The position numbers were made by a program, and so were the translations under genes. A stretch of 63,142 bases of DNA. It comes from Syntrophaceae bacterium. Its GTDB lineage: Bacteria > Desulfobacterota > Syntrophia > Syntrophales > PHBD01. The stretch covers positions 1 through 63,142 of the forward strand of contig JBFYXW010000027.1 in assembly GCA_041310335.1 (NCBI GenBank), given 5' to 3'. How positions within the stretch are numbered: position 1 is the first letter of the stretch; every line of letters begins with the position of its first letter. The notes under the pieces were generated by a model. That model did no database searches. It was not told where the DNA came from and saw nothing but the letters and a program-made list of their open reading frames with translations. Below are positions 27,176 through 50,827 of this stretch, piece by piece.

Positions 27176-27218
27176 GGATGCTTCTTTCCCTTCCCGCTCG
27201 AATGGCCGTTTCGGATTG

Positions 27219-33691: not shown

Positions 33692-33704
33692 GCGATCCCT
33701 GCCT

Positions 33705-35213
33705 TTACTGGAGTTTCTTGAGGGCCATGCCGCCGGCGATGAACCCGGAGGTCATGCAGGTCTGGTACCCCCCTCCGGGCAGCGTCCAGGCCGAAGCGAA
33801 GTACAGGCCGCCGACGGGGGGCCGGTTGCCCAGCCGCAGGAGCCCCGAGTCCGAAAGGTACTGGTCGAATCCGTAGATGGCGCCTCCCGGGTTGCCGGTG
33901 TAGCGCATGTTCGTCAGCGGCGTGGCCACCTCGACCACCTCCAGGTGGTCCCGAAGCCCCGGGAAATACCGCTCCGCCCGCTCGAACAGGACGGCGGCAA
34001 AGGCGTTCTTCTCGTCCACGTACCGCTCCGGGGGAATGAGGTACCAGGGTTGGGCGTAGCTCGCCGCGGTCAGGACCATGACGGACGTCCCCGGCGGCGA
34101 GAACTCCGGGTCGGAACTGGTGTAGCTCGTGAACAGCATCCCCCGGGGCGCCCCCAGGGTGAAGGCCGTCGCCCAGGCCTCCTCGATCCCGCGGCCGAAG
34201 TCGATGAAGTTCTCGTGCACCAACGCCCCCACCGCAGCGGGCGGGCAGTCGAGGCCCGCGTAAACGTTCACCGTGGAAAAGCCGACCTGGCGGCTGTTGA
34301 CCTGGCGGCGGTAACCCTCCGGGACCTGGTCGGCCCCCACCAGGTCGCCCAGGGTCGAGGGGATGCTGGCGTTGGAGACGACGACCCTCGTCTCCACCTC
34401 CTCCCCCTCGTCGGTGACAACGGCCCGGACGGCCCCGTCCTTCAGGAGGATCCGCCGGACGCCGCAGCCGAAGCGGACCTCGCCTCCGCACTCCGTGAAG
34501 GCCTCCACGAAGGCGTTCGACAGGGCCTGGTTCCGGCCCCGGATGTGCACCGGGTGCTGCTTGAGAAGGGCGTCCCAGCAGGAGGCCATCATGTGGAAGG
34601 GGACCTTCGACGGCGGCAGGCCCAGGTAGGACCAGAAGGGGGAGACGGCGCTCTTGAGGTCCTCGTCCTGGAAAAAACCGGTGAGAACCTCGCCGTAGGT
34701 CTTCATTCCCCACCGCGCGAAATCGGGGAAGCTCTCCGGCGTCAGGTCCGTGGCGCGGCGGCCGGCGGCCGCGAAGACGCCCGACAGGTCCCGGGCGAGC
34801 CGCTTCATGAGGGCGAAAAACTCCCGGATCTTTGCGGCTTCTCCGGGAAAGCGATCGCACAGCGTGTCGATCGTCCCCTCCCAGTCGGGCGGGAGGGTAA
34901 CGTCGATCCGCTCGTCCACGACGCGGTAGAGCTCCTTCAGGGGAAGGAACTGAAGTTTGCCCGCCACGCCCAGGAAGTCGAGGTACTCGTAGAGGCGGCC
35001 TCTCTGGCCCGGGAGTCCGATCCCCGAGAGGACGTGGAGGGAGGCGTCGAACTCGAAGCGCCCCCTCCGGAAGGAACTGGCGTATCCCCCCGGGACGTGA
35101 TGGCGCTCCAGGAGGAGGACCTGCTTCCCGCTCCGGGCCAGGAAGGTCGCGGCGGACATCCCGCCCAGACCAGCCCCGACGACGACGGCGTCATATCGCT
35201 TCTGCACGTGCAC
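33705..35213 (-). CDS. Phytoene-desaturase-family (CrtI-like, COG1233) FAD-dependent oxidoreductase
   Basis: GTG 35213. YDAVVVGAGLGGMSAATFLARSGKQVLLLERHHVPGGY dinucleotide fold. About 500 aa, with a C-terminal GGYQTCMTSG-type motif region. Confidence 0.85.
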   Translation of the reverse strand: MHVQKRYDAVVVGAGLGGMSAATFLARSGKQVLLLERHHVPGGYASSFRRGRFEFDASLHVLSGIGLPGQRGRLYEYLDFLGVAGKLQFLPLKELYRVVDERIDVTLPPDWEGTIDTLCDRFPGEAAKIREFFALMKRLARDLSGVFAAAGRRATDLTPESFPDFARWGMKTYGEVLTGFFQDEDLKSAVSPFWSYLGLPPSKVPFHMMASCWDALLKQHPVHIRGRNQALSNAFVEAFTECGGEVRFGCGVRRILLKDGAVRAVVTDEGEEVETRVVVSNASIPSTLGDLVGADQVPEGYRRQVNSRQVGFSTVNVYAGLDCPPAAVGALVHENFIDFGRGIEEAWATAFTLGAPRGMLFTSYTSSDPEFSPPGTSVMVLTAASYAQPWYLIPPERYVDEKNAFAAVLFERAERYFPGLRDHLEVVEVATPLTNMRYTGNPGGAIYGFDQYLSDSGLLRLGNRPPVGGLYFASAWTLPGGGYQTCMTSGFIAGGMALKKLQ

Positions 35214-37708: not shown

Positions 37709-38508
37709 GGCGCACCCCGGGCGGTCAGCATCCGTTCCGCCATCCGAACTCCCGTTTCCCGGGGAAGAAGCAAGGGGACCTGGGAATCGTCATCCGAACG
37801 GCAAAGGCTTTCCGGTTGCACGATCACGATGCCGATGTCATCCAGCCCCCCCCGGACCCTGTGGGCGGTCTCGCCGATCTCCTCGATCATCTCCGGGTAA
37901 TTCGGACACGTTTTTATCAGGCCTTCCAGGAAAGCAACGGTCCCCCGGCCGCAGGAACGCGCCAGGGACGCCAGCCCGTCGGAAGCGACGAGGAGGAGGT
38001 CGTCCTCCCGGAACGGCGCCGTTTCCGCCTGGAACAGGCCCGGCGCCCGGCCCACCAGGCAATGGTTGGTCCGGCTCAGTTGGAGGGCCGTCCCCTCCCC
38101 CGGCCGGAGGCGGAAGATGAGGCTGTCCCCGGCGTGGAGGATGGCAAAGCGCCGGTCGTGCCCGAAAACCGCCGCGGAGAAGGTCGTCCCGTCATGGTAG
38201 GCCGTTTCCCGGATCAGGCGATTCGTGGCCGACACCAGGCTGTCGAAAAGATCGTCCACAAGCCGGTTCGTCTCCAGCGGGTCGATCAAGCGGGACATGC
38301 CGACCCAAAAACGCTTCAGGAAGGTCGATGCCGCCTGCGGATTTCGTTCCGGCCCGTCGGCAACGGCGAAGATGCCCCTTTGCCCGTCGATCAGGACGGC
38401 ATCCCCGATCCCCTCCCAGGCCGCCTTTCCCGAACCGGGGAACAGGAGAACCGACCAAATGCCGGGTACATCGTATCGTTGCAATCCGCTCCCGTCGGAC
38501 TTTGCCAT
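37705..38508 (-). CDS. PP2C/SpoIIE-family Ser/Thr phosphatase, stand-alone domain
   Basis: ATG 38508 (TAATG overlap with the upstream stop) and ATGA overlap with the regulator start at 37705-37708. Motifs: FAVADGPERNPQAAS, HAGDSLIF, LLLVASDGL, GGLDDIGIVIV. Confidence 0.8.
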   Translation of the reverse strand: MAKSDGSGLQRYDVPGIWSVLLFPGSGKAAWEGIGDAVLIDGQRGIFAVADGPERNPQAASTFLKRFWVGMSRLIDPLETNRLVDDLFDSLVSATNRLIRETAYHDGTTFSAAVFGHDRRFAILHAGDSLIFRLRPGEGTALQLSRTNHCLVGRAPGLFQAETAPFREDDLLLVASDGLASLARSCGRGTVAFLEGLIKTCPNYPEMIEEIGETAHRVRGGLDDIGIVIVQPESLCRSDDDSQVPLLLPRETGVRMAERMLTARGAP

Positions 38509-40517
38509 TACAGGTTCAAAGCCTCCAGATGGCCCTCGGCGATGGCGTCGCTGAATTTCCGCGGCGCCTTCGCATCCCCGATTACGATCACCTCGACGCC
38601 CAGGGAGCGGCACTCCTCCTCCAGGCCGCGGACGGGCCGGGAGCCCACGGCCAGGATGACCGTGTCGGCCCCGATGGACTCGGTCCCCCCGTCCGTCTCC
38701 ACGATCACCGCCTCGCCCGTGATTTCCAGGAGCCGCGTCCGGGGGCGCAGCTCCACGCCGTGGCGGCGCAGGCTCTGCATCAGGACCCAGCGCGTCGAGG
38801 GGCCCACATTGGCCCCGATGCGGTCCACCATGTCGATGACGGTGATCCGGCGCCCGCTGTCCGAGCTCCGCCTCTTCAGCGTCTCGGCGTCCTCGGCGTC
38901 GTGGCGGGCGAGGAACGCGAAGGTCTCCGCGTCCAGGAGCCCCTCCGCGGCGACCCACTCCGCCGTCTCCAGGCCCACGGCATTGCCGCCGACGACCACG
39001 ACCCGCCTGCCGATGCGGGGGACCTTTCCCATCAGGACGTCCCAGGCGTCCACCACGTGCCCCGCGTCCACCCCGGGAACGGAAATGCGCAGGGGCCGCG
39101 CCCCCGTGGCCACCACCACGGCGTCGGGGGCCGCCTCGCGCACGTCCTCCACCGTCAGGGAACAGCCGCACCGGACCTCCAGACCCTCGTGCCGCAGCCG
39201 CTTCTCCATGCCGTCGCGGATGTGGACCAGTTCGCCCTTCCCGGGCGGCCGGGAGGCGATGTCGATCTGCCCGCCCAGGCGATCCTCCTTCTCGAAGAGC
39301 GTCACCGCGTGGCCGAGACGCGACGCCGTCAAGGCGAACTGCATCCCCGCGGGGCCGCCCCCGGCCACCCAGATTTTCCGGGGTCGGGATGCCTTCGCGG
39401 GCTCTGCCTGCTCCTCCCGCCCCACCCGGGGGTTCACGGCGCAGAAAATGCCCCTCCCCAGGAAGATGCTGTCGAAGCAGCCCTGGTTGCAGGAGACGCA
39501 GCGGACGATTTCGTCGTGACGGCCCTCCTTCACCTTTCGGGGCAGGTCGGGGTCGGCGATCAGGGGCCGTCCCCAGCAGATCAGGTCGGCGGCGCCGGCT
39601 CGCAGGACCCGCTCCGCCACGGCGGGGTCGCCGAGGCGGTTCGAGGCGAAAACGGGGACGGACACCTTTTCCTTGATGCCCCGGGCCAGGTAGGCGTAGG
39701 CGCCGGGGGGGACGGAGGCGGTCAGCTGGGGAACCGCCGTCTCGTGCCACCCTCCCGTCACGTTGACGGCGTCCACGCCGGCCTTCTCGGCCTCGGCACA
39801 GAAGAGGGCCGACTCGTCGTTCGTGTTGCTCCCCTCCATGAAGTCGTTTCCCGCCACCCGGATGCCCAGGGCCGCGTCGGGTCCGACGGCGGCCCGGACC
39901 CGGCGGATCACCTCCAGGCCGAAGCGCATGCGGTTGTCCCAGGATCCGCCGTAGGCGTCGGTGCGGTGGTTCGTCAGGGGGGACAGGAACTGGCTGATCA
40001 GGTATCCCGTGCAGGCGATGATCTCGATGAAGTCGAACCCCGCGGCAACGGCCCGGACCGCCGCCCCGGCGAAGGCCTCCTGGACGCGGTCGATGTCCTC
40101 TTCCGTCATGGCCTTCGGGACGTCCCCCGTCAGCCGGCTGCGGACGGCGGAAGGCGCCAGGGCCGGCTCCCCCGTGAAGAGCCGCGCCGGGGCGTTTCTC
40201 CCCATGTGGAAGAGCTGGACGCCCAGCTTCGCCTCCGTGTCCCGGTGGAGCTCCGCCGTCAACTGCCCGAGGACGGGAAGGTTCGTGTCGTCAAAGAGGC
40301 CCGGCATGACCGGCGCCCCGCCCTTGAGGTCGATGGCCAGGGGGCCCACGATCATCAATCCCACCCCCCCGTGGGCCCGCTGCCGGTAAAAGGCGGAATA
40401 TTTCTCGTTGAACGCATAGTCGTCCGTAAAGTGAAGCCCCATCGCGGGCATCACCGTGCGGTTGGCGATCCGCAACCGGTTGATCGTGACGGGCTCGAAC
40501 AGGCGTACGTACTCCAT
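38508..40517 (-). CDS. OYE-like FMN/[4Fe-4S] + FAD/NAD(P) reductase (2,4-dienoyl-CoA reductase FadH family)
   Basis: MEYVRLFEPVTINRLRIANRTVMPAM (an alternative start at 40526 adds MLT). Motifs: QLFHMGR, CVSCNQGCFD...FCAVNP FeS motif, KIWVAGGGPAGM and VVVVGGNAVGLE Rossmann folds. Confidence 0.9.
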   Translation of the reverse strand: MEYVRLFEPVTINRLRIANRTVMPAMGLHFTDDYAFNEKYSAFYRQRAHGGVGLMIVGPLAIDLKGGAPVMPGLFDDTNLPVLGQLTAELHRDTEAKLGVQLFHMGRNAPARLFTGEPALAPSAVRSRLTGDVPKAMTEEDIDRVQEAFAGAAVRAVAAGFDFIEIIACTGYLISQFLSPLTNHRTDAYGGSWDNRMRFGLEVIRRVRAAVGPDAALGIRVAGNDFMEGSNTNDESALFCAEAEKAGVDAVNVTGGWHETAVPQLTASVPPGAYAYLARGIKEKVSVPVFASNRLGDPAVAERVLRAGAADLICWGRPLIADPDLPRKVKEGRHDEIVRCVSCNQGCFDSIFLGRGIFCAVNPRVGREEQAEPAKASRPRKIWVAGGGPAGMQFALTASRLGHAVTLFEKEDRLGGQIDIASRPPGKGELVHIRDGMEKRLRHEGLEVRCGCSLTVEDVREAAPDAVVVATGARPLRISVPGVDAGHVVDAWDVLMGKVPRIGRRVVVVGGNAVGLETAEWVAAEGLLDAETFAFLARHDAEDAETLKRRSSDSGRRITVIDMVDRIGANVGPSTRWVLMQSLRRHGVELRPRTRLLEITGEAVIVETDGGTESIGADTVILAVGSRPVRGLEEECRSLGVEVIVIGDAKAPRKFSDAIAEGHLEALNL

Positions 40518-40541
40518 GGTCAACATTCCCCCTGCGCCCGG

Positions 40542-41027
40542 CTACGCCTTCGCCCACGGCACGGCGAAGCCCTCGGGAATCTTTCTCCCCTGCCAGACCC
40601 CGTGAACCAGGGCGACCACTTCCCCCCCGGCGTCCTTGAGTTCCAGGTCCAGGACGATGTCCGCCTTGCCCTTTTCCTCCATTTCCTTCGCGATGCCGTC
40701 GACAGTCTCCGCCGACACCTCGGCGACCAGCGTCACGTCCGTCAGGGCGGGGCGCCGGTAGCGGATGCGGATCTCCTTGGCGATGGGGAAGTATTTCATG
40801 TAATCCAGGGTCGCTCCGAAGAGGGCGCCGCCGATGACCTCTCCCAGCGCGAAGAGGGATCCCGCGTACATCATACCGATGTGATTCGTGTTTCTATCTA
40901 TGGGCATCATCATCTTGACGTATCGCTCGCGCATTTCGAGCACCTGGACGCCGGTCCGCCGAATGGCCTCCACGCCGTTCTGCGAGAAGTCGGCCACGTG
41001 CTTGTATTTTTCCTCGATCATCGTCAT
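40542..41027 (-). CDS. Hotdog-fold thioesterase (PaaI/YiiD_C-like)
   Basis: NHIGMMYAGSLFALGEV. About 160 aa. ATG 41027 forms an ATGA overlap with the upstream stop; ATG 41021 is an alternative, and the track start at 41039 is TTG. Confidence 0.7.
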   Translation of the reverse strand: MTMIEEKYKHVADFSQNGVEAIRRTGVQVLEMRERYVKMMMPIDRNTNHIGMMYAGSLFALGEVIGGALFGATLDYMKYFPIAKEIRIRYRRPALTDVTLVAEVSAETVDGIAKEMEEKGKADIVLDLELKDAGGEVVALVHGVWQGRKIPEGFAVPWAKA

Positions 41028-41830
41028 CTCCTCTTCCAATCGGGTTTGCGGCCTTCCATCAGGGCTTTCACCCCCTCCTGGAAATCGTCGCTCCTAAGGA
41101 GGGCACTCTGCAGGCCCACTTCCATGTCCAGGTGCGTCATGAGGTCGACCCCCTCGCCGCGCTTCACGATCCGCTTGACGGCCCCGACGGCCAGGGGCCC
41201 CATGGCGATGATGTCGCGGGCCAGCCGCTCCGCCTCTTCCAGCAGGGTCTCCGCCGGGAACACGTCGTTGATCAGTCCGTACTGCAGGGCCTGGGCGGCG
41301 GTGTAGGTCCTGCCCGTCATGAGGATCTCCATGGTTTTGGCGGGGCCAACGATCCGGCTCAGGCGGGCCGTGCCCCCCAGGTCGGGGACGACGCCGAACC
41401 GGAGCTCCGGCATGCTCCAGAGGCAGTCCTCGCTCATGAGGCGGATGTCGCAGGCCAGGGTCAATTCCAGCCCCAGCCCCAGCACGCGGTTGTGCATCGC
41501 GCAGAGGATGGGGATCTCGATGGCCTCCAGGCGGTTCAGGTACTGCTGGAACCGGGAGATGTCCGCCCGGATGGACGCCCCGCCGGCCGCCGAGTCGGTC
41601 ATGAAGCGGCCCACGAGGCCGGCGAGAGACGCGAAATCCACCCCCGCCGAAAAGACCTTTCCCTCCCCCTTGAGGATAATGACCCGGACCTCCGGGTCCG
41701 TGACCAGGCCCTCCACCATCCCCGAGATCGCCTCGATCATCTCGAAGGTGATGGCGTTCCGCTGGGCCGGGCGGTTCAGGGTGATATGGAAGATGGCCCC
41801 TCTCTTCTCGCCGATCACGTGTTCGTCCAC
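41024..41830 (-). CDS. Enoyl-CoA hydratase/isomerase (crotonase family)
   Basis: GTG 41830 follows GGGAGGAGG. AIFHITLNRPAQRNAIT, GEGKVFSAGVDF, MHNRVLGLGLELTLACDIRL. Confidence 0.85.
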   Translation of the reverse strand: MDEHVIGEKRGAIFHITLNRPAQRNAITFEMIEAISGMVEGLVTDPEVRVIILKGEGKVFSAGVDFASLAGLVGRFMTDSAAGGASIRADISRFQQYLNRLEAIEIPILCAMHNRVLGLGLELTLACDIRLMSEDCLWSMPELRFGVVPDLGGTARLSRIVGPAKTMEILMTGRTYTAAQALQYGLINDVFPAETLLEEAERLARDIIAMGPLAVGAVKRIVKRGEGVDLMTHLDMEVGLQSALLRSDDFQEGVKALMEGRKPDWKRR

Positions 41831-41873: not shown

Positions 41874-42881
41874 TTATCCCCGCGGCGCCACCTCCCGGCT
41901 GCCGCACGAGGACCTTTCCAGGTCTCGGACCCGGGCCAGGATGGCGTGGGCCCCCTCGACGATCTCCTCCACCACCTCCGCGATGGGCTTGATCTCGCGA
42001 ATGAGACACGCCCCCATGCTGCAGGCGACGGGCACGCCGTCGGGATCCCCCTTGGCGTAGGTTTCGCGGCCCACCTGGCCGCCCACCACGGTGAGCAGCT
42101 CCATCAGCGACGCCCCCCGCGCCTCCATTTCCAGGACCCGCTCCGTCGCCCGGTTCTTGTAGCACCGGAACGGGTTCTTGAGGGAGCGCATGATGAGGGC
42201 CGTGTCCGTCTCCCCGATTTCCAGGTAGCGCCGCTTGATGGTCTCGCTCATGGTGCTCTCGCGGGTGACCACGAAGCGGGTTCCCATTAGCACACCGTCG
42301 GCGCCCATGCAAAGGGCGGATGCGAAGCCCCGGGCGTCGACGATGCCCCCCGCCGCAACGACGGGGATGTCCAGCTCGTCCACCGCCCTGGGGAGGAGGA
42401 TCGACAGGGGGACGTCGTCCATCCCGGGATGGCCGCCGCACTCGAACCCGACGATGATGATGCCGTCGACGCCGCCCGCCGCGGCCTTCTTTGCGAACCG
42501 GATCGAGGGGACCTTGTGGAAGACCCGGACCCCCCCTTCCCGGAGGACGGGCAAGAGAAACGCCGGGTCGCTCCCCGCCGTCTCCGCCGCCGCGACCCGC
42601 TCCGCCGCGGCGATCCGGGCGAAGGAGAGGGAGCGCTCCCCCTTCCCCACGTCGGGGAGCATGCTGATGTTCACGCCGAAGGGACGGTCCGTCAGGTCCC
42701 GGGTCTTCTTGATCTCCTCCCGCAGGGCCTCCGGCGAGGGGAAGGTCTCCGCCGCGAGAAACGCCATGACGCCGGCGTTAGCGGCGGCGGCGGTGAACTC
42801 CGCCGTGGACAGCAGTTGCATCCCCCCCATCATGATCGGGTGGGGAATGCCCAGCATCTCGGTCAGGCGCGTCTGGAACAT
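41874..42881 (-). CDS. NMO/FabK-like FMN-dependent oxidoreductase, third copy
   Basis: ATG 42881 (TAATG overlap with the ligase stop): MFQTRLTEMLGIPHPIMMGGM. Motifs: VGFECGGH, IPVVAAGGIVDARG, GVLMGTRF. Confidence 0.85.
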   Translation of the reverse strand: MFQTRLTEMLGIPHPIMMGGMQLLSTAEFTAAAANAGVMAFLAAETFPSPEALREEIKKTRDLTDRPFGVNISMLPDVGKGERSLSFARIAAAERVAAAETAGSDPAFLLPVLREGGVRVFHKVPSIRFAKKAAAGGVDGIIIVGFECGGHPGMDDVPLSILLPRAVDELDIPVVAAGGIVDARGFASALCMGADGVLMGTRFVVTRESTMSETIKRRYLEIGETDTALIMRSLKNPFRCYKNRATERVLEMEARGASLMELLTVVGGQVGRETYAKGDPDGVPVACSMGACLIREIKPIAEVVEEIVEGAHAILARVRDLERSSCGSREVAPRG

Positions 42882-44557
42882 TACGAACTCCTTGCGGCCT
42901 TGATGGCCATCTCCCGCAATTCCCGCCGGAGGATCTTTCCCACGGCGGACTTGGGCAGGCTCTCCACGATTTCGTAGATTTTGGGGACCTTGTAGGCCGC
43001 CAGGTGCTTCCGGCAGAATGCATCGAGCTCCGCGGACGTGATCACCTCGCCCGGGCGGGGCACGACGCAGGCCTTCACCGTCTCTCCCCTGTACTCGTGG
43101 GGGAGCCCGATCGTGCAGGCCTCCAGCACCTTGGGGTGCCGGTACAGGACCTCGTCGATGTCCCGCGGGTAGATGTTGTATCCCCCCGCGATGATCATGT
43201 CCTTCTTGCGGTCGACGATGTAGAGGAACCCGTCCTCGTCCATCCGCCCGATGTCCCCGGTGCAGAACCAGCCGTCCCGGACCGCCTGGGCCGTCTCCTC
43301 GGGCATGCCGTAGTACCCGAGGCACTGCTGGGGCCCCCGGAAGAGGATTTCCCCCGGCTCGCCCACGGGCATGTCGACGGTCCCCGTTTCCAGGTCGACG
43401 ATGCGGATGTCCGTGTTGGGGAGGGGCACCCCGACGCTCCCCGGCTTCAGTTTGCCTCGCCAGGGGGTCATGTGGGTGATGGAGGTGGATTCGGTCATCC
43501 CGTACCCCTCCACGATGGAGGCCCCCGTGGCCTCCTGCAAGGCCTCGATGGTTTCCACGGACAGCGGGGCCGCCCCCGAGAAGAACCCCTTGATGAAGGA
43601 CAGGTCCGCCTTCTTGAACTCTGGCATAGCCATGACGCCCACGTAGATCGTCGGGACCGCCAGGAAGATGGACGGCCGGTATTTCAGCGTCATCTCCATC
43701 ACCGCCTGCGGCTCCGGCCGCGGCACCAGGATGGCCGTCCATCCCTTGTAGATGGAGAGGTTCATGACCAGGTTGAAACCCGCCATGTGGAAGAAGGGAA
43801 AGATGGCCAGCTCGCTGTCCGCCCCGTCCGGGAGGTCGAAGAACCAGGCCCCCAGGATCTGGTTGATGCAGGAGATGTTCCGGTGGGTGATGATGGCCCC
43901 CTTGGAAACTCCCGTCGTCCCGCCGGTGTAGGGGATCAGCGCCAGGTCGTCCAGGCGCGGCGTCTCCAGGGCCTCCCCCGGAGGCGCGCTCCTCATCAGG
44001 TCCAGGAAGGCGTGGGTCCCGTCCGCTTTTTCATCGGGACGGTACATGGCTTTCTTGACGAAGGGAAACAACTGCTTCGCCGGGAACGGCAGGTAGTCGT
44101 TGATGTGGGCGGTGATGATCCTGGTGACGGACGTTTTCGCCTTCAGCGTGAGGACGCGCGGCGCCAGGAGATCCAGGGTGATGACGGCCGTCGCCCCGGA
44201 GAGGTCGGCCTGGTGGCGGATCTCCTCGTCCGTGTAGAGGGGGTTGCAGGGAACCGGGACGGCCCCGGCCCGCCAGAGGCCGTAGTAGGCGATGACGATC
44301 TGGGGGACGTTGGGCAGGAGCAGCAGCACCCGGTCCCCCCGCTTCACGCCGATGCTCTTCAGGGCCCGGGCGAAGGTCGACGCCAGCCCGTCGAGCTCGG
44401 CGAAGGAGATCCTCTTCCCCATGAACACGAGGGCGTCCCTCCGGGGAAAGCGCCGGGCCGTCCGGGCGAGGTATTCCGGCATCGTCACATCTTCGAAGGC
44501 CACCTCCCGGGGGACGCCGGGCATGTATTCCCTGTGCCACAGACGCTCTTCCATCAC
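42881..44557 (-). CDS. Long-chain-type (FadD-like) acyl-CoA ligase
   Basis: WHREYMPGVPREVAFEDVTMPEYL, IPYTGGTTGVSKGA, GYGMTESTS, TGDIGRMDEDGFLYIVDR, GKILRRELR. The start is GTG 44557 or ATG 44554. Confidence 0.9.
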   Translation of the reverse strand: MMEERLWHREYMPGVPREVAFEDVTMPEYLARTARRFPRRDALVFMGKRISFAELDGLASTFARALKSIGVKRGDRVLLLLPNVPQIVIAYYGLWRAGAVPVPCNPLYTDEEIRHQADLSGATAVITLDLLAPRVLTLKAKTSVTRIITAHINDYLPFPAKQLFPFVKKAMYRPDEKADGTHAFLDLMRSAPPGEALETPRLDDLALIPYTGGTTGVSKGAIITHRNISCINQILGAWFFDLPDGADSELAIFPFFHMAGFNLVMNLSIYKGWTAILVPRPEPQAVMEMTLKYRPSIFLAVPTIYVGVMAMPEFKKADLSFIKGFFSGAAPLSVETIEALQEATGASIVEGYGMTESTSITHMTPWRGKLKPGSVGVPLPNTDIRIVDLETGTVDMPVGEPGEILFRGPQQCLGYYGMPEETAQAVRDGWFCTGDIGRMDEDGFLYIVDRKKDMIIAGGYNIYPRDIDEVLYRHPKVLEACTIGLPHEYRGETVKACVVPRPGEVITSAELDAFCRKHLAAYKVPKIYEIVESLPKSAVGKILRRELREMAIKAARSS

Positions 44558-44593: not shown

Positions 44594-46276
44594 TCAGGCG
44601 GACGAGGACGATTCGCTCTGCCGCCTCTTCTCCATATCCCGGAGCTCCCGCCGGAGGATCTTGCCCACGGCGCTCTTCGGAAGGTCATCCATGAATTCGA
44701 TTCTCTTGGGAACCTTGTATGCGCTCAGCTTCTCCCGGCAGAAATCGAAAATCTCCGCCGCCGTCAGGGATTCGCCGGACCGGACAACGACGAAGGCCTT
44801 GACGGTCTCGCCCCGGTAGGAGTCGGGGACGCCGATGGTGCAGGCTTCCAGGATCTTGGGGTGCGAGAAGAGGACCTCGTCGATCTCCTTGGGATAGATG
44901 TTGAAGCCCCCGGCGATGATGACGTCCTTCTTGCGATCCACGATCTGCAAGTACCCGTCCTCGTCCATCACGCCGATGTCGCCCGTGTAGATCCACCCGT
45001 CCCGGATGATCTCCGCCGTCTCCTCGGGCTTCCGGTAGTACCCCGTCATGACCTGGGGACCCCGGAAGCAGATCTCCCCGGCTTCCCCGGGAGGCACCTC
45101 GGTTTCCCCCGTCTCGGCGTCCACGATCTTCATGTCCGTGCTGGGCACCGGTATGCCTACCGTGCCTGGCTTGATGCGCCCCCGCCACGGCGTCGCCGTC
45201 ACGACGGGACTCGTCTCCGTCATCCCGTAGATCTCGAGCATCACCGATCCCGTGGCGGCCTGAAGCTGCCGGATGACCTCCTCCGGCAGCGGCGCCGCCC
45301 CGGAAAAGAATCCCTTGATGAACGACAGGTCCATCTTCCGGAATTTCTCGAGAGCCAGGAGTCCCACGTAGGTGGTGGGCACGGCGCCGATGTAGTTCGG
45401 CTTGCCGCTGGCGATGGTATCGACCAGGAGAGCCGGCTCCGGTTTCGGGATGAGGACGTCCCTCAGGCCCATCCAGATGGCCAGGTGCATGCAGAGGTGT
45501 CCCGCCGAGTGGAAGAAGGGAAAGATGAACAGCAGGCGCTCGCCGAAAGGCACGTCGTGAATGTGCGCCGACAGCTGCTGGACGTTGGAGGACAGGTTGG
45601 CGTGGCTGAGCACGACGCCCTTGCTGACCCCCGTCGTTCCGCCCGTGTAGATCAGGACGGCGGTGTCCTCCCAGCCCGCCGTGTTTTCGAGGGGGTGCGC
45701 CGGGAACCGGCGGAGGAGTTCCAGGAACTCATAGACCTGCGCCTGGGCCGGGATCTTCCGGTACATGCCCTTCTTGACGATGGGAAAGAGCTGTTTCTTC
45801 GGAAAGGGTAGGTAATCGTTGAGGTGACAGTAGACGATCTTCTCGATACCCGTTTTATCCTTCAGGCCTGAAATCTTCGGCAGCAGAAGATCCAGCGTCA
45901 CGGCCATCTTCGATTCGGAGTCGCTGATCTGGTAGGCGAGTTCCCGGTCCGTGTAGAGCGGGTTCAGCATCACGGGAACGGCGCCGATCCGCATCGCCGC
46001 CAGGTTGGCGACGGCCGTCTGCGGCATGTTGGGCAGCAGGATCGCCACCTTGTCGCCCTTGCGGATACCCAGGGAGAACATGGCGCTGCCGAACCGGTTG
46101 ACCAGGCCGTCGAACTCGCGGAAGGAAAGGATTCTTCCCATGTAGTCGAGGGCCGCTGCGTCCGGGTTCCGTTCGGCTCGGTCCGCCAGCACCTGGGGCA
46201 TGGTGATCCGCTTGACGTCCAGTATCGGGGGCACCGCGGAGGGATAGCTCCGGTGCCAGCTTCTTTCAAAAGACAT
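44594..46276 (-). CDS. Long-chain-type (FadD-like) acyl-CoA ligase
   Basis: ATG 46276 follows GGGGAGG: MSFERSWHRSYPSAVPPILDVKRITMPQVL. Motifs: IYTGGTTGVSKG, IYGMTETSP, TGDIGVMDEDGYLQIVDR. Confidence 0.9.
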   Translation of the reverse strand: MSFERSWHRSYPSAVPPILDVKRITMPQVLADRAERNPDAAALDYMGRILSFREFDGLVNRFGSAMFSLGIRKGDKVAILLPNMPQTAVANLAAMRIGAVPVMLNPLYTDRELAYQISDSESKMAVTLDLLLPKISGLKDKTGIEKIVYCHLNDYLPFPKKQLFPIVKKGMYRKIPAQAQVYEFLELLRRFPAHPLENTAGWEDTAVLIYTGGTTGVSKGVVLSHANLSSNVQQLSAHIHDVPFGERLLFIFPFFHSAGHLCMHLAIWMGLRDVLIPKPEPALLVDTIASGKPNYIGAVPTTYVGLLALEKFRKMDLSFIKGFFSGAAPLPEEVIRQLQAATGSVMLEIYGMTETSPVVTATPWRGRIKPGTVGIPVPSTDMKIVDAETGETEVPPGEAGEICFRGPQVMTGYYRKPEETAEIIRDGWIYTGDIGVMDEDGYLQIVDRKKDVIIAGGFNIYPKEIDEVLFSHPKILEACTIGVPDSYRGETVKAFVVVRSGESLTAAEIFDFCREKLSAYKVPKRIEFMDDLPKSAVGKILRRELRDMEKRRQSESSSSA

Positions 46277-46399
46277 GATGCCTCCCCTTGAAGAAAAGGG
46301 GGGCGGGAATTCACCCCGATCCACAGTCCCGCTGCGGGCCGGCGATCCGGGATCGCCTCCCACACAGCGGGAACACGGGTCCGGTCCTTTCCGGCCCCG

Positions 46400-46876
46400 T
46401 CAGAGCACGGCGAAGTGCTTGATGTCCATCAGGTTTCCCGTGCGCCGCTCCTCGAAGACGGCCTTGACGCGGGCGCCCACCTTGACCTTCTCGGGATCGA
46501 CGCTGTCGAGGAAGTGGGTCAGGCAGGTGTCCGCCCCGTCCAGTTTCACGAACGCCCACGTGTACGGAACCGGGCGCTGGACGCCCGTGCTGGGGTCCAC
46601 GAAGCCGAACTGGACGATCGTGCAGACGTAGATCGTCCCCTCGTCCGAGAGGGGGACCATCTCGTCCATCGCCACGTAGCACTGCCCGCAGACGGGCCGG
46701 GGGGGTACGTAGACCCGTTTGCACTTGGGACAGCGGATCCCGACGATCTTCTTGTTGTCCCTCAGTTGCTGAAGAAAATAGGAGCCGTGTTTTCCCACGC
46801 TCCATTGGAAGGGCTGGCTGGTCTCACCCGAAGAAATGGAAAGGAGCTCCACGTCTTCCCTTTTTTTCTCATTCAT
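46400..46876 (-). CDS. DUF35-type Zn-ribbon + OB-fold protein (thiolase-partner family)
   Basis: ATG 46876 follows GGGAGG. CPKCKRVYVPPRPVCGQC four-Cys ribbon, then an OB-fold-like C-terminus ending KHFAVL. Confidence 0.85.
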   Translation of the reverse strand: MNEKKREDVELLSISSGETSQPFQWSVGKHGSYFLQQLRDNKKIVGIRCPKCKRVYVPPRPVCGQCYVAMDEMVPLSDEGTIYVCTIVQFGFVDPSTGVQRPVPYTWAFVKLDGADTCLTHFLDSVDPEKVKVGARVKAVFEERRTGNLMDIKHFAVL

Positions 46877-46910
46877 GACTGCCTCCCGACATGAGGATAA
46901 TCGCTTTTGA

Positions 46911-48107
46911 TTACGATGGCTTCTTCTTACCCAGCAGCATGACGTCACCCCAGTAGCAGCCGCCGAATCCCGTGGCTAAGGCCAGATTGACGTCCCCGCC
47001 CTTCACTTGGCGGGTCCCCGCCCGGCCCATGACCTGCAGCGCCGCCTCCCCTACCCGGATCAGGGCCGTCGCCCCGATGGCGTTGGAGGACATGACGCCG
47101 CCGGACGGGTTGACCGGCAGTTCGCCGTCCATGTCGGTGACCCCGTCCCACAGGAGCCGGGGGCCTTCCCCGTAGGCGCAGAAGCCGATGTCTTCGATCC
47201 ACTTCAGCCCCGCGTAGGAGTAAGGAAGATAGAGCTCGCAGACGTCGATCTCCTTCAGGGGCTCCTTGATCCCGGCCTTCTTGAACACCTTCTTCGAGGC
47301 CTCGGCGATGGTGGTGTTGCGGTCCATGTTCACGTCGCCGGCATAGACGAAATTGTGGCTGTTGGCCGTCGCGTGCACCCACGCCGGGACGGGGGCGATC
47401 TTCTCCGCCGTGCCCTCCGCCGCGAAGATGACCGCGGCGGCCCCGTCGGTGCGGGGACACATGTCGCTCATCCGGAGCGGGTAGGCGAGCATGGCGTTCT
47501 GCTCCGATCCGACGAGGAGGTCCACCAGCTGGTCCACGGGAATCCCCTTCATCCACTCCTGGTGGAGATGGGCGAAGGGGTTGTTCAGGGCGTGGAGGCG
47601 CTCCCGGACGGCCACCCGGGCCCCGTCGCGCTCCGTCGCCCCGTAGTTGGCCATGTACTTGCTGGCCTCGATGGCGAGCCCCGCCACGGCGCCGCCCAGG
47701 GTCGGCCGCTCCCAGACGGGGTGGAAGGCGGTGATGATGGCCCCCGTCGTGTCCGATTCGGAATTCTTTTCCCAGCCGATGGCCAGGACCCTTTTGAACA
47801 TGCCCGAGGCGACGTGATAGTAGGCGCACATGGCGACCGTCGTCCCCGTCGTTCCCCCGGTGCACACCTTGATGACCGGCTTCATCACCGCGCCGGCCCC
47901 CTCGGCGGACCACATGTCCACGTAGTTGATCCCCTCGAAGTGATCCATGTTGCCGATCACGACGGCGTCGATGTCCCGGATGGTCAGTTCCGCATCCGCA
48001 AGCGCGGTGTTCACGGCCTCGTTGATCAGCTCCACCCCGTTGACGTCCTTCCGGGAGCTGCGCTGATAGGTCTGGCCAAAACCGACAATGGCTACCCGTT
48101 TGCCCAT
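46911..48107 (-). CDS. Thiolase-fold (SCP-x/Ltp-like) protein, non-canonical active site
   Basis: MGKRVAIVGFGQT... Where the thiolase at 61986 has NYCATGT, this protein has CTGGTTGT. By hand alignment that puts Gly at the Cys position, with a Cys three residues earlier. The C-terminal GHP motif is replaced by SSNAIGAT. Confidence 0.85.
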   Translation of the reverse strand: MGKRVAIVGFGQTYQRSSRKDVNGVELINEAVNTALADAELTIRDIDAVVIGNMDHFEGINYVDMWSAEGAGAVMKPVIKVCTGGTTGTTVAMCAYYHVASGMFKRVLAIGWEKNSESDTTGAIITAFHPVWERPTLGGAVAGLAIEASKYMANYGATERDGARVAVRERLHALNNPFAHLHQEWMKGIPVDQLVDLLVGSEQNAMLAYPLRMSDMCPRTDGAAAVIFAAEGTAEKIAPVPAWVHATANSHNFVYAGDVNMDRNTTIAEASKKVFKKAGIKEPLKEIDVCELYLPYSYAGLKWIEDIGFCAYGEGPRLLWDGVTDMDGELPVNPSGGVMSSNAIGATALIRVGEAALQVMGRAGTRQVKGGDVNLALATGFGGCYWGDVMLLGKKKPS

Positions 48108-48119
48108 ATGATGTCCTCC

Positions 48120-49256
48120 TTACGCTCCCACGATAAACACGCAGTGAGCCTGTCCACAGGGACCGTTGATCCCGTGGGCGAGGGCCGTCTTTGCGCCCTT
48201 CACCTGCCTCTTTCCCGCTTCACCCCGGACCTGCAGGGTCGCCTCGACGAGCCGCACCATCCCGGCCACGAGGACCGGGTGGCTGGAAAGGACCCCCCCG
48301 GACGGATTGACCGGCAGTTCGCCCTTCATGCCCGTGGCGCCGCTCCGGATCAGTTCATATCCCTTCCCCTCGGGAGCGAACCCCAGACCCTCGTACCACA
48401 TCAGCTCCATGTAAGAGTACGCATCGTAGAGCTCCGCCACGTCCAGGTCCGAGAGGGGCTTCTGGATGCCCGCGGCCTTGTAGGCCTTCTTCGCCGCCGC
48501 CTTCAGGGCCCTGGACTTCGCGAGGTCGCGGTAGCCCAGGTTGAAGGCGTCCGCGCAGTGTGCCACGCCCTTGATCCAGACGGGATCCTTCTTGAACCGC
48601 TTCAGCCCTTTCCTGTTGGAGAGGACGATCGCCGCCGCCCCGTCGCCGATGGGGGAGCAGTCCAGGAGTTTCAGCGGTTCGGCAATCTTCCGGGAGGCCA
48701 GGACATCCCGGACGGAGACCTTCAGCGGCAACTGGGCATACGGGTTGTTCCGGGCGTTGCCGTGATTCTTGACGGAAACCCGGGCAAAATCCTCTTCCGT
48801 TGCCCCGCTCATGGCCATGTAGGACCGCGCCTGCAGGGCCGCCGCGGATGTTGCGTCGATGCCGAGTCCCCGCTGGTAGATGGGGTCGAACATGGCGTTC
48901 GTGATGAGGTTCATGATGCTCTCGGACCCCTTCATGTGGGAAACGACCAGCGTCGTGTCGAAGGATCCCGAGAGGATGCGCATCATGCCGTAGAAGGCGC
49001 CAAAGGTCCCGTCACCCTCCACCGTGGACACGTCCTTTCCCCAGGAGCCGGCGGCTTCCTGGACGGCCATGGACGAAATGGTCCGGCCGTCCCAGAAGTC
49101 GTTCGAGACGGTGACCACGTTGTCGATGTCGCCGACCTCGGCGCCGGCATCGGCCAGCGCTTTCGTCGCCGCCTCGAAAACCATCTCCTCGAAGGTGTCT
49201 TCCCTGCTCGAGGTGCAGGTTGTCTGTCCAACACCAACAATCGCGATTTTGCTCAT
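48120..49256 (-). CDS. Thiolase-fold (SCP-x/Ltp-like) protein lacking the nucleophile Cys
   Basis: ATG 49256 follows GGAGGAAAT: MSKIAIVGVGQTT. VEGDGTFG aligns to NYCATGTE, placing Glu at the Cys position. It retains NPSGGVLSSHP. Confidence 0.85.
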   Translation of the reverse strand: MSKIAIVGVGQTTCTSSREDTFEEMVFEAATKALADAGAEVGDIDNVVTVSNDFWDGRTISSMAVQEAAGSWGKDVSTVEGDGTFGAFYGMMRILSGSFDTTLVVSHMKGSESIMNLITNAMFDPIYQRGLGIDATSAAALQARSYMAMSGATEEDFARVSVKNHGNARNNPYAQLPLKVSVRDVLASRKIAEPLKLLDCSPIGDGAAAIVLSNRKGLKRFKKDPVWIKGVAHCADAFNLGYRDLAKSRALKAAAKKAYKAAGIQKPLSDLDVAELYDAYSYMELMWYEGLGFAPEGKGYELIRSGATGMKGELPVNPSGGVLSSHPVLVAGMVRLVEATLQVRGEAGKRQVKGAKTALAHGINGPCGQAHCVFIVGA

Positions 49257-49273
49257 ATTTCCTCCATCGCTCC

Positions 49274-49732
49274 CTATACCGGCGCAAAGTGTTTGATGTC
49301 GGCGATCGTACCGGTGCGCTCCTTGGCGAAGACCGCCTGGACCTTCATGCCCACTTTCAGTTTCTTGAAGTCCGTATCGCCGATCAGGTGAAGAAGGGCG
49401 CCGTCCGCACCGTCCAGCCGGATGAGTCCGTACGCCAGCGGGGCCTTCCGGGGCTGCATGTCGTGGCTGTAGTGGACGATGGTGAAGGACTCCAGGACCC
49501 CCGTGTCGCTCACCCGGACCCACTCGTCCGTGGGGACGAAGCACTCCCCGCAGCTCTTGACGGGGGGGACGTAAACCCGGCCGCACCCGGGGCATCGGTT
49601 GCCCCAGATTTCCTTCCGGTCCCGGATTCCCGTGAGAAAGCGGCTTCCGGTCATTCCGGCGTTCCAAAGGTAGGGAACCTTGATGCGCCCGGAATAGATC
49701 ATGTTTTTCACGTTGTCTTTCCAGTTGGTCAT
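49274..49732 (-). CDS. DUF35-type Zn-ribbon + OB-fold protein, second copy
   Basis: ATG 49732 follows GGGAGG: MTNWKDNV... CPGCGRVYVPPVKSCGEC ribbon; the C-terminus ends KHFAPV like the copy at 46400. Confidence 0.85.
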   Translation of the reverse strand: MTNWKDNVKNMIYSGRIKVPYLWNAGMTGSRFLTGIRDRKEIWGNRCPGCGRVYVPPVKSCGECFVPTDEWVRVSDTGVLESFTIVHYSHDMQPRKAPLAYGLIRLDGADGALLHLIGDTDFKKLKVGMKVQAVFAKERTGTIADIKHFAPV

Positions 49733-49861: not shown

Positions 49862-50827
49862 TTACTTCTTCTGGGGAAGGCCGAGCATTTCCCGTGCCTG
49901 GGCGACCGTCGCCACCTCGCGGTTCATGATCTCGGCCATCTGCTTGACCCGCTTCACGTACTCGGCGTTGCTCTTCACCTTCTGACCCTTCTTGAAATAC
50001 AGGTTGTCCTCCATGCCGACGCGGACGTGGCCGCCCATGATGATCCCCATGGCGTTCATGGGGATCTGGAACGTCCCCACGCCGATGACGGCGAACATGG
50101 AGTTGGGGGGCATCTCGTTGATGAAGGACAGCACGTTGGCGGGGGTCGGGAACGAAGATGTCTGGAAGCCCATGACGAACTGGATCATGTACGGGGGATC
50201 GATGCTGCCCTCCCGGATCAAATCCTGGAGCACCCAGTACTGGCCCTGGTGATAGATTTCCACCTCCGGCTTGATCCCCCTCTCCTTCATCGTCTTGGCG
50301 TAGAGGTTGACGTCGCTGTAGGACGCGGGGATGCAGGCGTCGAACACGAAGCCGGGCCGCGGATTGGCGATGGGCTCCTTGCGGTCCTTCAGGGGCATCT
50401 TCAGCATGAAGGGCCCCAGGTTCAGGCTCGCCATGTCCGGGGGCACCTCGGCAAAGAGGCAGCACATCCGCTGCTCCGTCGTCAGCCAGGGGCCGCCGCC
50501 GGTGGTGTTGTTGATGATGATGTCGGGACAGCGCTCGCGGATCAGCTTGTTGATCCGGGAATAGTCCTCGGCGTTCGACGACGTCAGCGACAGGTTTTCC
50601 GGCACCCGGGCGTGGATGTGCACGGAAACGGCACCGGCCTTGTAGGCCTCGTAGACCTGGTCCGCCTGCTCTTCCGCCGTCTCGGGCAGGTTCTCGTTGT
50701 ACTCCTTGCCCTGCACGCCCCCGGTGATGGCACAGGTGATCATCATCGGCGGGAACTTCCCCGTCATGTTCCGGGTCATCCACTCGTACGGATTGCGAAA
50801 ATCCCAGATGTAATCCTCCTTCTTCAT
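49862..50827 (-). CDS. BKACE-family enzyme (3-keto-5-aminohexanoate cleavage enzyme-like, DUF849)
   Basis: ATG 50827 follows CGGAGG. PMMITCAITGG, SVHIHAR (HxH Zn motif), HVRVGMEDNLY. Confidence 0.85.
   Translation of the reverse strand: MKKEDYIWDFRNPYEWMTRNMTGKFPPMMITCAITGGVQGKEYNENLPETAEEQADQVYEAYKAGAVSVHIHARVPENLSLTSSNAEDYSRINKLIRERCPDIIINNTTGGGPWLTTEQRMCCLFAEVPPDMASLNLGPFMLKMPLKDRKEPIANPRPGFVFDACIPASYSDVNLYAKTMKERGIKPEVEIYHQGQYWVLQDLIREGSIDPPYMIQFVMGFQTSSFPTPANVLSFINEMPPNSMFAVIGVGTFQIPMNAMGIIMGGHVRVGMEDNLYFKKGQKVKSNAEYVKRVKQMAEIMNREVATVAQAREMLGLPQKK

Follow-up and report, generated by a model that had tools for sequence, protein, structure and literature searches.

A contig of a Syntrophaceae bacterium (JBFYXW010000027.1 of assembly GCA_041310335.1), analysed here over its whole 63,142 nt and hereafter called the window, carries on its minus strand a compact cassette of four genes, in which two different proteins of the SCP2-type thiolase fold, TL2 and TL1, lie between two small proteins with a DUF35 architecture, DUF35B and DUF35A. 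Neither thiolase-fold protein has a catalytic Cys, and both are related to Ltp4 and Ltp3, two proteins of sterol-degrading actinobacteria. We propose, with a probability of about 0.6, that the four genes encode one heteromeric, DUF35-docked aldol-lyase complex acting on a non-oxidisable 3-hydroxyacyl-CoA, and not a thiolase.

Organization of the cassette

The window has a G+C content of 61-71%, and the genome to which it belongs has a size of 2.78 Mb and an estimated completeness of 99.5%. The four genes follow each other in the order DUF35B, TL2, TL1, DUF35A:

DUF35B, 49274..49732, minus strand: 152 amino acids (aa), stand-alone zinc ribbon plus OB fold, cassette gene 1 (Pfam zf-ChsH2 and OB_ChsH2_C)
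TL2, 48120..49256, minus strand: 378 aa, Cys-less SCP2-type thiolase fold, Ltp4 lineage (Pfam Thiolase_N and Thiolase_C_1, phmmer, tree)
TL1, 46911..48107, minus strand: 398 aa, Cys-less SCP2-type thiolase fold, Ltp3 lineage (Pfam Thiolase_N and Thiolase_C_1, NCBIfam, tree)
DUF35A, 46400..46876, minus strand: 158 aa, second stand-alone zinc ribbon plus OB fold (Pfam zf-ChsH2 and OB_ChsH2_C)

The genes are separated by gaps of 17, 12 and 34 nt, coordinates and spacing that a previous interpretation made from the DNA alone (the sequence-only reading) had already given correctly. Each downstream cassette gene is preceded by a Shine-Dalgarno site, including DUF35A, whose ATG at 46876 has GGGAGG upstream. 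The TAA stop codon of TL2 is followed by GGAGGACATCAT and then by the ATG of TL1, and the two genes share the same reading frame across this spacer (48108-48119), an in-frame arrangement that we also observed in 15 of 70 related loci.

In DUF35A and in DUF35B, the two Pfam domains exceed their gathering thresholds, consistent with a Cys4 rubredoxin-like ribbon joined to an OB fold, and the proteins share 46.5% identity (blastp). The four-Cys zinc ribbon that had been recognized in both is confirmed by the alignments: Cys49, 52, 63 and 66 of DUF35A are invariant in 78 rows, and the CxxC-N10-CxxC motif of DUF35B (Cys 47, 50, 61 and 64) is invariant in 77 rows except for the fourth Cys, which is Asp in two of them. 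DUF35 proteins are known to act as a 'molecular staple' (PMC12329534, PMC10398937).

Neither TL1 nor TL2 retains the catalytic residues of thiolases

Both proteins clearly belong to the thiolase superfamily by fold, as indicated by the Pfam domains listed above and by Foldseek matches. In phmmer alignments with solved thiolases, Gly85 of TL1 faces the catalytic Cys of 6ESQ, an archaeal thiolase (CTG[G]TTG versus AA[C]ASG), while TL2 shows a three-residue gap exactly at the 'CST' of 6HSJ, an SCP2-thiolase from zebrafish. The same columns, Gly85 in TL1 and Asp82-Gly83 in TL2, emerge when 17 paralogues from the same genome or eight PDB chains are aligned with MAFFT L-INS-i, and Gly85 is invariant in all 81 orthologue rows. 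The characteristic motifs are TGG85TTG, Y293LPY, SSN342A and GFGGC384xW in TL1, and VEGD82G83 followed by the three-residue deletion, Y277DAY, SSH326P and NGPC367GQxHC in TL2. The equivalent of the HDCF motif is therefore YLPY in TL1 and YDAY in TL2, with its Cys replaced by Pro and Ala, respectively; at the position of the His of GHP, TL1 has Asn342 and only TL2 keeps a His (His326).

In these alignments, neither protein has a nucleophilic Cys in the N-beta3/N-alpha3 loop or the Cys of HDCF. Neither can then form an acyl-Cys intermediate, and thiolysis by the known mechanism is excluded for both on the aligned residues. The absence of the nucleophile had been correctly perceived by the sequence-only reading, as had SSHP in TL2, SSNA in TL1, and the canonical nature of the thiolase encoded at 61986, which carries MENYCATGTEA, HDCF and GHP and served as a control. 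Its Gly at the Cys position of TL1 also holds, and the Cys that it noted three residues upstream (Cys82) is present but not conserved; being Thr in 70 of the 81 rows, Cys82 is rejected as a displaced nucleophile. Its assignment of Glu to the Cys position of TL2 has to be corrected, as this position is occupied by Asp82/Gly83 or deleted, Glu80 lying two to three residues upstream.

Orthologues share 55-94% identity overall, and the thiolase active-site loops are near-invariant in both proteins: NMDHFEGINY, K-V-T-T-G-G-T-T-G, WEKNSESDTTG, ELY-x-P-Y-S, NPSGGV-x-S-x-N and GFGGC-x-W in TL1, and SNDFWDGRTIS, VEGDG, H-x-KGSE, FDPIY-x-R, ELYDA[FY]SY, NPSGG-x-LS-x-HP and GINGPCGQSHC in TL2. Such a pattern argues for catalysis and against a decayed copy.

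Relationship to actinobacterial Ltp4 and Ltp3

In a maximum likelihood tree (a quick IQ-TREE run with SH-aLRT support, in which the Ltp4-type branch is long), TL1 and TL2 form a single clade (SH-aLRT 98), with support of 91 for TL1 and 100 for TL2. The Cys-bearing SCP2, archaeal and BbsB group (including 4YZO) is separate from it, and a further separate clade (SH-aLRT 99) gathers CtSal (9MYR), TcLtp2 (6OK1), 4U4E and two other Cys-less proteins of this genome. The Ltp2-type proteins to which the sequence-only reading drew a parallel are thus a different lineage, and we reject membership of this type on the tree and on the missing equivalents of Tyr344 of Ltp2 and Cys304 of Sal.

The TL clade includes instead a PRK08313 protein, which falls inside the TL1 half (96), and a PRK07937 protein, which falls inside the TL2 half (99). 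Both are encoded on plasmid NZ_LR134446.1 of Tsukamurella tyrosinosolvens (66828-70005), where a 309-aa double-DUF35 gene is followed by the PRK07937 gene (593 bits, cut-off 419) and then by the PRK08313 gene (734 bits, cut-off 514), with NMO-family, crotonase and ligase genes upstream. From protein sizes and gene order we take PRK07937 to be probably Ltp4 and PRK08313 probably Ltp3, and the pair with its double DUF35 presumably corresponds to the Rv3521-Rv3522-Rv3523 type. The best NCBIfam match of TL1 is PRK08313 (354.7 bits, below the cut-off of 514), which is also the best match of TL2 (295.6 bits, with 192.2 for PRK07937, below the cut-off of 419), so that TL1 and TL2 are relatives and not members by NCBI criteria. 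The Ltp3-type protein shares the TL1 signature of Gly, Y-x-P and Asn. According to PMC6273163 and PMC8708139, which cite Wilbrink 2012 (pmid 23059973), ltp3 and ltp4 code for aldol-lyases that become essential only when the sterol side chain is branched at C24.

The two systems have much in common. In both, the gene for the TL2/Ltp4 protein comes before that for the TL1/Ltp3 protein, the two products being different from each other and Cys-less within the thiolase fold. DUF35 modules precede the pair, there are two such modules per pair, and an NMO-family flavoprotein, an EchA19-like crotonase and an acyl-CoA ligase are shared neighbours. Tree position and gene order show the cassette to be, at this level of comparison, an anaerobe version of the actinobacterial double-DUF35/Ltp4/Ltp3 system. 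They are nevertheless distant, with an identity of only about 40% for TL1 and 30% for TL2. The DUF35 proteins of the cassette are two genes that flank the pair, both with Cys4 ribbons, whereas those of actinobacteria are fused in one upstream chain whose N-terminal module has lost the CxxC...CxxC ribbon and whose C-terminal module keeps it (L104:2996-3925, NZ_LR134446.1). TL2 differs from the Ltp4 type by its three-residue deletion and by Tyr and His where the latter has His and Asn. Finally, the cassette occurs in strict anaerobes, reaches seven copies per genome, and is often coupled to a gene for a beta-keto acid cleavage enzyme (BKACE). We abandoned an attempt to pair DUF35A and DUF35B with the individual modules of the actinobacterial double-DUF35 protein, as scores do not discriminate. 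A search for Rosetta-stone fusions with the TL2-TL1 read-through retrieved 'double thiolase' proteins of 708-754 aa from metagenome contigs (P0126-P0135), which are actinobacterial Ltp4-Ltp3 read-throughs and were not used; they are probably assembly frameshifts, because they mostly have out-of-frame-looking linkers and each occurs on one contig only.

Conservation across genomes and paralogous modules

A protein search with TL1 gave 3222 proteins at E <= 0.001 among 8000 candidates scored, and the names among the matches listed are all of thiolase type ('thiolase family protein', 'acetyl-CoA C-acetyltransferase', 'propanoyl-CoA acyltransferase'). A scan of one genome per species identified 465 places encoding a relative, and gene order was counted in the best 80 of these. 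We found DUF35B, TL2, TL1 and DUF35A in the same order in 72 of the 80 loci, corresponding to 72/72 of those readable in full; of the remaining eight, seven run into a contig end and the last has a frameshifted TL2. No informative locus among these 80 lacks a cassette member, a conservation of gene order that is far beyond chance. At L015:7442-8576, in a long-read metagenome bin, TL2 appears as two overlapping pieces, probably owing to an assembly indel.

The hosts span at least seven phyla. They include Thermodesulfobacteriota (Syntrophales, Smithella, Desulfomonile and Desulfarculaceae), Spirochaetota/Leptospirales and Anaerolineae (Chloroflexota), as well as Ca. Solincola (Actinomycetota), Poribacteria, Abyssobacteria (filed under Hydrogenedentota) and Zymogenaceae, and metagenome bins of Syntrophaceae and Syntrophales supply the nearest relatives of TL1. 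A literature search on DUF35 together with BKACE, Syntrophus or Sterolibacterium retrieved no description of the cassette.

The genome itself contains 18 Thiolase_C_1 genes, among which we identified seven TL2-TL1 tandem pairs, on contigs C135, C22, C4, C27 (probably continued on C50), C63, C101 and C147. DUF35 genes, in variable positions, lie beside six of the seven pairs, and for C27 on the probable continuation C50; BKACE genes are found near two further TL modules. In every TL1-type paralogue, Gly occupies the nucleophile position, HDCF is replaced by Y-x-P and the His by Asn, and all TL2-type paralogues have an acidic residue just before the nucleophile position together with the three-residue deletion. 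In the tree, the paralogous modules branch in parallel in the TL1 and TL2 halves, indicating that pairs were duplicated as units; by this topology, TL1 and TL2 are ancient paralogues that have been duplicated together. The genome also codes for nine Cys-bearing thiolases (seven matches to a classical thiolase query plus two of SCP2 type) and for 12 3-hydroxyacyl-CoA dehydrogenases, two of them beside other TL modules. As ordinary thiolases and dehydrogenases are present, the TL module adds to beta-oxidation and does not replace it.

A second, divergent module with the arrangement TL2'-TL1'-DUF35A'-DUF35B' occurs in the first ~3.4 kb of four related loci (L053, L055, L061 and L064), a few kb upstream of the main cassette, and is directly followed by BKACE in L055 and L064. 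DUF35 and BKACE genes at the edges of L038, L045, L050 and L080 are part of this divergent-module arrangement, and the same pattern is seen in the genome under study on C4 and C27/C50.

Evidence for a heteromeric assembly

We used AlphaFold2 to model the natural TL2-TL1 read-through (TAA read as Gln, 782 aa), with 12 paired rows from related loci, likewise in frame, as additional input (13 sequences in total). The model reaches a predicted template modelling score (pTM) of 0.80, a value biased towards the dimer geometry that the network has learned and judged without coordinates, and a mean predicted local distance difference test (pLDDT) score of 75.6. Each half adopts the SCP2-type thiolase fold, with Foldseek target-normalised TM values of 0.8-0.9 to 7YVY, 6HSP, 6ET9, 4YZO and 6OK1, and the pTM suggests a defined mutual arrangement of TL2 and TL1 in the model. 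Segments of low confidence (56-74 and 117-140 in TL1, 54-59 and 111-132 in TL2) coincide with the most conserved loops, which would fit an ordering of these loops upon binding of a partner or substrate.

The strict co-occurrence of the four genes (72/72 loci), the parallel diversification of TL1 and TL2 over seven modules and the pTM of the read-through model together strongly suggest a heteromeric assembly of the cassette products. The idea of a heteromeric, non-thiolytic C-C lyase, already advanced by the sequence-only reading, is thus strengthened to this degree in its heteromeric part, and its non-thiolytic part is borne out by the missing Cys.

Comparison with characterised DUF35-bound enzymes

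[quoted passage not shown] For residue comparisons, the CtSal sequence was rebuilt from a printed alignment, and its numbering reproduced every residue named in PMC12329534, from which the roles of Sal and Ltp2 residues as base and acid are also taken:

CtSal Gly89: Gly85 in TL1, Gly83 in TL2
CtSal Tyr302 (base; Tyr294 in Ltp2): Tyr293 in TL1, Tyr277 in TL2
CtSal Cys304 (acid): Pro295 in TL1, Ala279 in TL2
CtSal Gln352 (position of Tyr344 in Ltp2): Asn342 in TL1, His326 in TL2
CtSal Gly391: Gly383 in TL1, Gly365 in TL2

Of the Sal dyad formed by Tyr302 and Cys304 in YDCY, TL1 and TL2 keep the Tyr and have lost the Cys. Similarly, they keep the first of the two Tyr of Ltp2 (Tyr294 of YDHF) and have replaced Tyr344, TL1 retaining an amide, as in Sal, at this position (Asn342). 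There are also differences in architecture: Sal and Ltp2 each form homodimers of a single aldolase instead of combining two paralogues, their DUF35 is built into a MaoC hydratase as one of its domains whereas those of the cassette stand alone, and the ribbon of the Sal partner is Cys3His and not Cys4.

The benzoylsuccinyl-CoA thiolase BbsAB (7PXP) and the archaeal thiolase/HMG-CoA synthase/DUF35 complex (6ESQ/6ET9) resemble the cassette in a different way, as both have an SCP2-type thiolase-fold subunit bound by a stand-alone Cys4 DUF35, and they are among the best sequence and fold matches of the TL proteins. However, they are true thiolases, with a nucleophile Cys and HDCF or HDAF, and have one thiolase paralogue only; moreover, the archaeal DUF35 bridges to an HMG-CoA synthase that is absent from the cassette. 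An assignment to BbsAB is contradicted by the lack of the Cys and by scores far below the cut-offs, namely 97 and 143 bits for BbsB (cut-off 750) and 30 and 20 bits for BbsA (cut-off 250).

Genomic context

The cassette makes up genes 2-5 of an operon that starts with BKACE (likely start ATG 50827, preceded by GGAGG). Downstream of the cassette, the gene order runs through two ligases to an Fe-S flavoenzyme and then to a PP2C-like protein (Pfam SpoIIE) and a sigma-54 activator. The genes around the cassette are:

BKACE, 49862..50827, minus strand: beta-keto acid cleavage enzyme, directly upstream of the cassette (Pfam PF05853, 1e-82)
Two acyl-CoA ligases, 44594-46363 and 42881-44557, minus strand: directly downstream of the cassette (Pfam AMP-binding)
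FabK/NMO-like flavoprotein, 41874-42881, minus strand: start overlaps the ligase stop (Pfam and NCBIfam)
EchA19-like crotonase, 41024-41830, minus strand (Pfam and NCBIfam)
DUF4442 thioesterase, 40542-41039, minus strand (Pfam and NCBIfam)
OYE/FadH/BaiCD-like Fe-S flavoenzyme, 38508-40526, minus strand (Pfam and NCBIfam)

The NCBIfam matches of BKACE (Kce, 3,5-dioxohexanoate:acetyl-CoA transferase and 3-oxoadipate:acetyl-CoA transferase) are all below their cut-offs, as are the best matches of the two ligases, which are to long-chain fatty-acid--CoA ligases. The operon is part of a 42-kb minus-strand cluster that comprises six ligases, four acyl-CoA dehydrogenases, five crotonases, MaoC hydratases, one Cys-thiolase, an AMACR-like family-III CoA-transferase and a CrtI-like flavoprotein with an FNR-type reductase; further upstream, at 11037-13082, there is a seventh ligase gene. 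No 3-hydroxyacyl-CoA dehydrogenase was found in the 42-kb cluster.

A BKACE gene is present in 38 of the 80 related loci and adjoins the cassette in 26, and in 14 the gene immediately upstream of DUF35B codes for a Cys-type thiolase. One Anaerolineae locus displays the order ligase, Cys-thiolase, DUF35, TL2, TL1, DUF35, BKACE and AtoDA-type CoA-transferase, with an aldehyde:ferredoxin oxidoreductase (AOR) and an iron-type alcohol dehydrogenase (Fe-ADH) upstream. In two other loci, the genes that follow the cassette code for an acyl-CoA dehydrogenase, an NMO-type flavoprotein, a ligase, AOR, an SCP2-domain protein and Fe-ADH. AOR was considered as a general neighbour and rejected, being restricted to some clades.

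The cluster contains three NMO/FabK-like flavoprotein genes (26138-28205 and 41874-42881), one of which (~27219-28205) was missed by simple ORF picking. NMO genes recur as neighbours of the cassette in many other loci, and one accompanies the actinobacterial Ltp4/Ltp3 pair as well. At 32531-35213, the CrtI-family flavoprotein is paired with the FNR-type [2Fe-2S] reductase, which hints at a polyene or isoprenoid-like substrate.

Proposed function and alternatives

By analogy with the alpha-beta-beta-alpha arrangement of Sal-Shy, Ltp2-ChsH2 and BbsAB, TL2 and TL1 would form a thiolase-type heterodimer, each capped by its own DUF35; the 2+2 composition suggested by the sequence-only reading would be of this kind. 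The neighbouring acyl-CoA dehydrogenases would make an enoyl-CoA, whose hydration by a crotonase or MaoC hydratase would give a 3-hydroxyacyl-CoA for which oxidation to the 3-keto form is blocked, such as a tertiary, beta-branched alcohol. Cleavage of its C2-C3 bond by the complex, without a covalent enzyme intermediate, would then release acetyl-CoA or propionyl-CoA and a ketone or aldehyde. The invariant Tyr of the TL1 Y-x-P motif, located at the catalytic-base position of Sal Tyr302 and Ltp2 Tyr294, is the most likely base, Cys384 and Tyr296 of TL1 are candidate proton donors in this orthologue group, and Asp82, Tyr277 and His326 of TL2 could form a second site.

Since BKACE is found repeatedly in the same operon, the carbonyl product of the lyase is probably a beta-keto acid, as would arise from a 3-hydroxy-3-substituted glutaryl-CoA-like substrate. 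Members of the BKACE family convert a beta-keto acid and acetyl-CoA into an acyl-CoA and acetoacetate, and BKACE would here yield a shortened acyl-CoA and acetoacetate. A lyase acting on such a glutaryl-CoA derivative would deliver both BKACE substrates, and we therefore favour BKACE as product acceptor; AtoDA-type CoA-transferase and Cys-thiolase neighbours could serve in acetoacetate disposal. In the classical pathway for the C24 branch of sitosterol, a beta-keto acid is likewise formed after aldol cleavage. For 3-hydroxy-3-isopropenylglutaryl-CoA, an intermediate proposed in the anaerobic breakdown of limonene, a scheme that follows this reasoning on glutaryl-CoA derivatives has been put forward with enzymes of another family (PMC12583861).

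A more speculative extension, which we regard as unlikely in this general form, is that the TL2-TL1-DUF35 complex and BKACE together provide a two-enzyme, ATP-free and oxygen-free way past beta-branch points. The 3-hydroxy-3-substituted glutaryl-CoA intermediates would come from isoprenoid-like or ring-opened alicyclic acids, the lyase would give acetyl-CoA and a beta-keto acid, and BKACE would reuse the acetyl-CoA, so that the thioester is conserved. If true, and with seven modules per genome, syntrophs and other anaerobes would possess a general branch of anaerobic beta-oxidation that has gone unrecognised, and the heterodimer may use two distinct active sites.

Several observations weigh against an aldol-lyase. 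TL1 has the proton donor of neither characterised aldolase, Sal Cys304 being replaced by Pro295 and Ltp2 Tyr344 by Asn342, and the module lies outside the Sal/Ltp2 clade, which would make aldolase chemistry either convergent or ancestral. TL2-type paralogues vary at the HDCF and His positions, so TL2 may be structural only. Other TL modules adjoin 3-hydroxyacyl-CoA dehydrogenase and Cys-thiolase genes, which makes the missing dehydrogenase of the window weak evidence. Aldehyde oxidoreductase genes lie near the cassette in only about six loci. The genome has no acetone-carboxylase-type enzyme (hydantoinase-B type), and no carboxyltransferase gene is present on any contig bearing a TL module; it is therefore not evident how a methyl ketone or methyl branch would be turned into a beta-keto acid, and we rejected methyl-ketone carboxylation feeding BKACE, the free methyl-ketone route being unsupported in a genome that lacks such a carboxylase. 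To these should be added the bias of the fused-model pTM described above. We found no biochemical characterisation of Ltp3 or Ltp4 in the literature, where the evidence found is genetic only.

Alternatively, the complex might carry out another non-thiolytic reaction on the same fold, a possibility that we consider doubtful. It may be a hydrolytic retro-Claisen enzyme, in which a 3-oxoacyl-CoA would be hydrolysed with TL2 Asp82 as base or nucleophile and a free acid released; a decarboxylase of malonyl-type or beta-keto substrates, similar to KS-CLF or to the weak malonyl-CoA decarboxylase activity of TbSLP; or a CoA-independent acyl transferase such as PhlABC. The acidic residue just before the nucleophile position in every TL2 paralogue is consistent with such chemistry, the seven acyl-CoA ligases and the thioesterase of the window would fit free-acid intermediates, the BKACE link places beta-keto acids or acetoacetate in the pathway, and the structural neighbours include PhlC and MucC, two thiolase-fold acyltransferases bound by DUF35. 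However, hydrolysing a thioester at every cycle would be costly for a syntrophic anaerobe, we found no precedent for an Asp nucleophile on the thiolase fold, PhlC uses Cys and its KAS-III partner is absent from the cassette, and the closest relatives, Ltp3 and Ltp4, have been assigned aldol-lyase roles.

It is less probable still that TL1 and TL2 are catalytically dead and form with the DUF35 proteins a scaffold or an acyl-CoA/lipid carrier that organises BKACE, hydratases or a true thiolase. This would be in line with the loss of all canonical catalytic residues, with the role of DUF35 as a 'molecular staple' (PMC12329534, PMC10398937) and with the 14 loci having a Cys-type thiolase gene directly upstream of DUF35B, but it is hard to reconcile with active-site loops that are the most conserved parts of both proteins, notably TGGTTG, ELYLPYSY and NPSGGVMSxN in TL1 and VEGDG, ELYDA[FY]SY and SxHP in TL2, with the retention of seven paralogous pairs in a 2.78-Mb genome, and with the specific catabolic phenotype of ltp3 and ltp4 knock-outs, as reported in PMC6273163. 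Thiolase activity through a relocated Cys (TL1 Cys384, or TL2 Cys367/Cys372, as nucleophile) appears very improbable. TL1 Cys384 is indeed invariant in 81/81 rows, most true TL2 rows retain Cys367 and Cys372, and all three lie in the C-terminal loop that holds the acid/base Cys in classical thiolases. Yet paralogous modules and Ltp3/Ltp4-type proteins have Thr, Met, Val, Gly or Ala there, no second Cys is available as acid/base, and Cys82 of TL1, the one near the old site, shows the poor conservation noted above.

Public annotation of TL proteins as 'thiolase family protein' or 'acetyl-CoA C-acetyltransferase' means that metabolic reconstructions of syntrophs and hydrocarbon degraders miscount them as ordinary thiolases. 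An aldol-lyase function would mark how strict anaerobes pass the branch points that block normal beta-oxidation, and would offer a biochemical handle on the little-studied Ltp3 and Ltp4 of actinobacteria that degrade sterols, mycobacteria among them. Enzymology, and biocatalysis in search of tools for C-C bonds, would also take an interest in a thiolase-fold lyase that is heterodimeric and has a new set of residues.

A second kind of Cys-less protein in the same genome

The two Cys-less proteins that group with CtSal, TcLtp2 and 4U4E are encoded elsewhere in the genome (C143:5367-8197 and C222:967-2064), and represent a second kind of Cys-less thiolase fold, with Gly-Gly at the nucleophile position, YDSY or YIAY, and a retained GH. 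The C143 gene follows that of a Cys-bearing SCP2-type thiolase and precedes a DUF35 gene, and its product is a candidate Sal-like aldolase.

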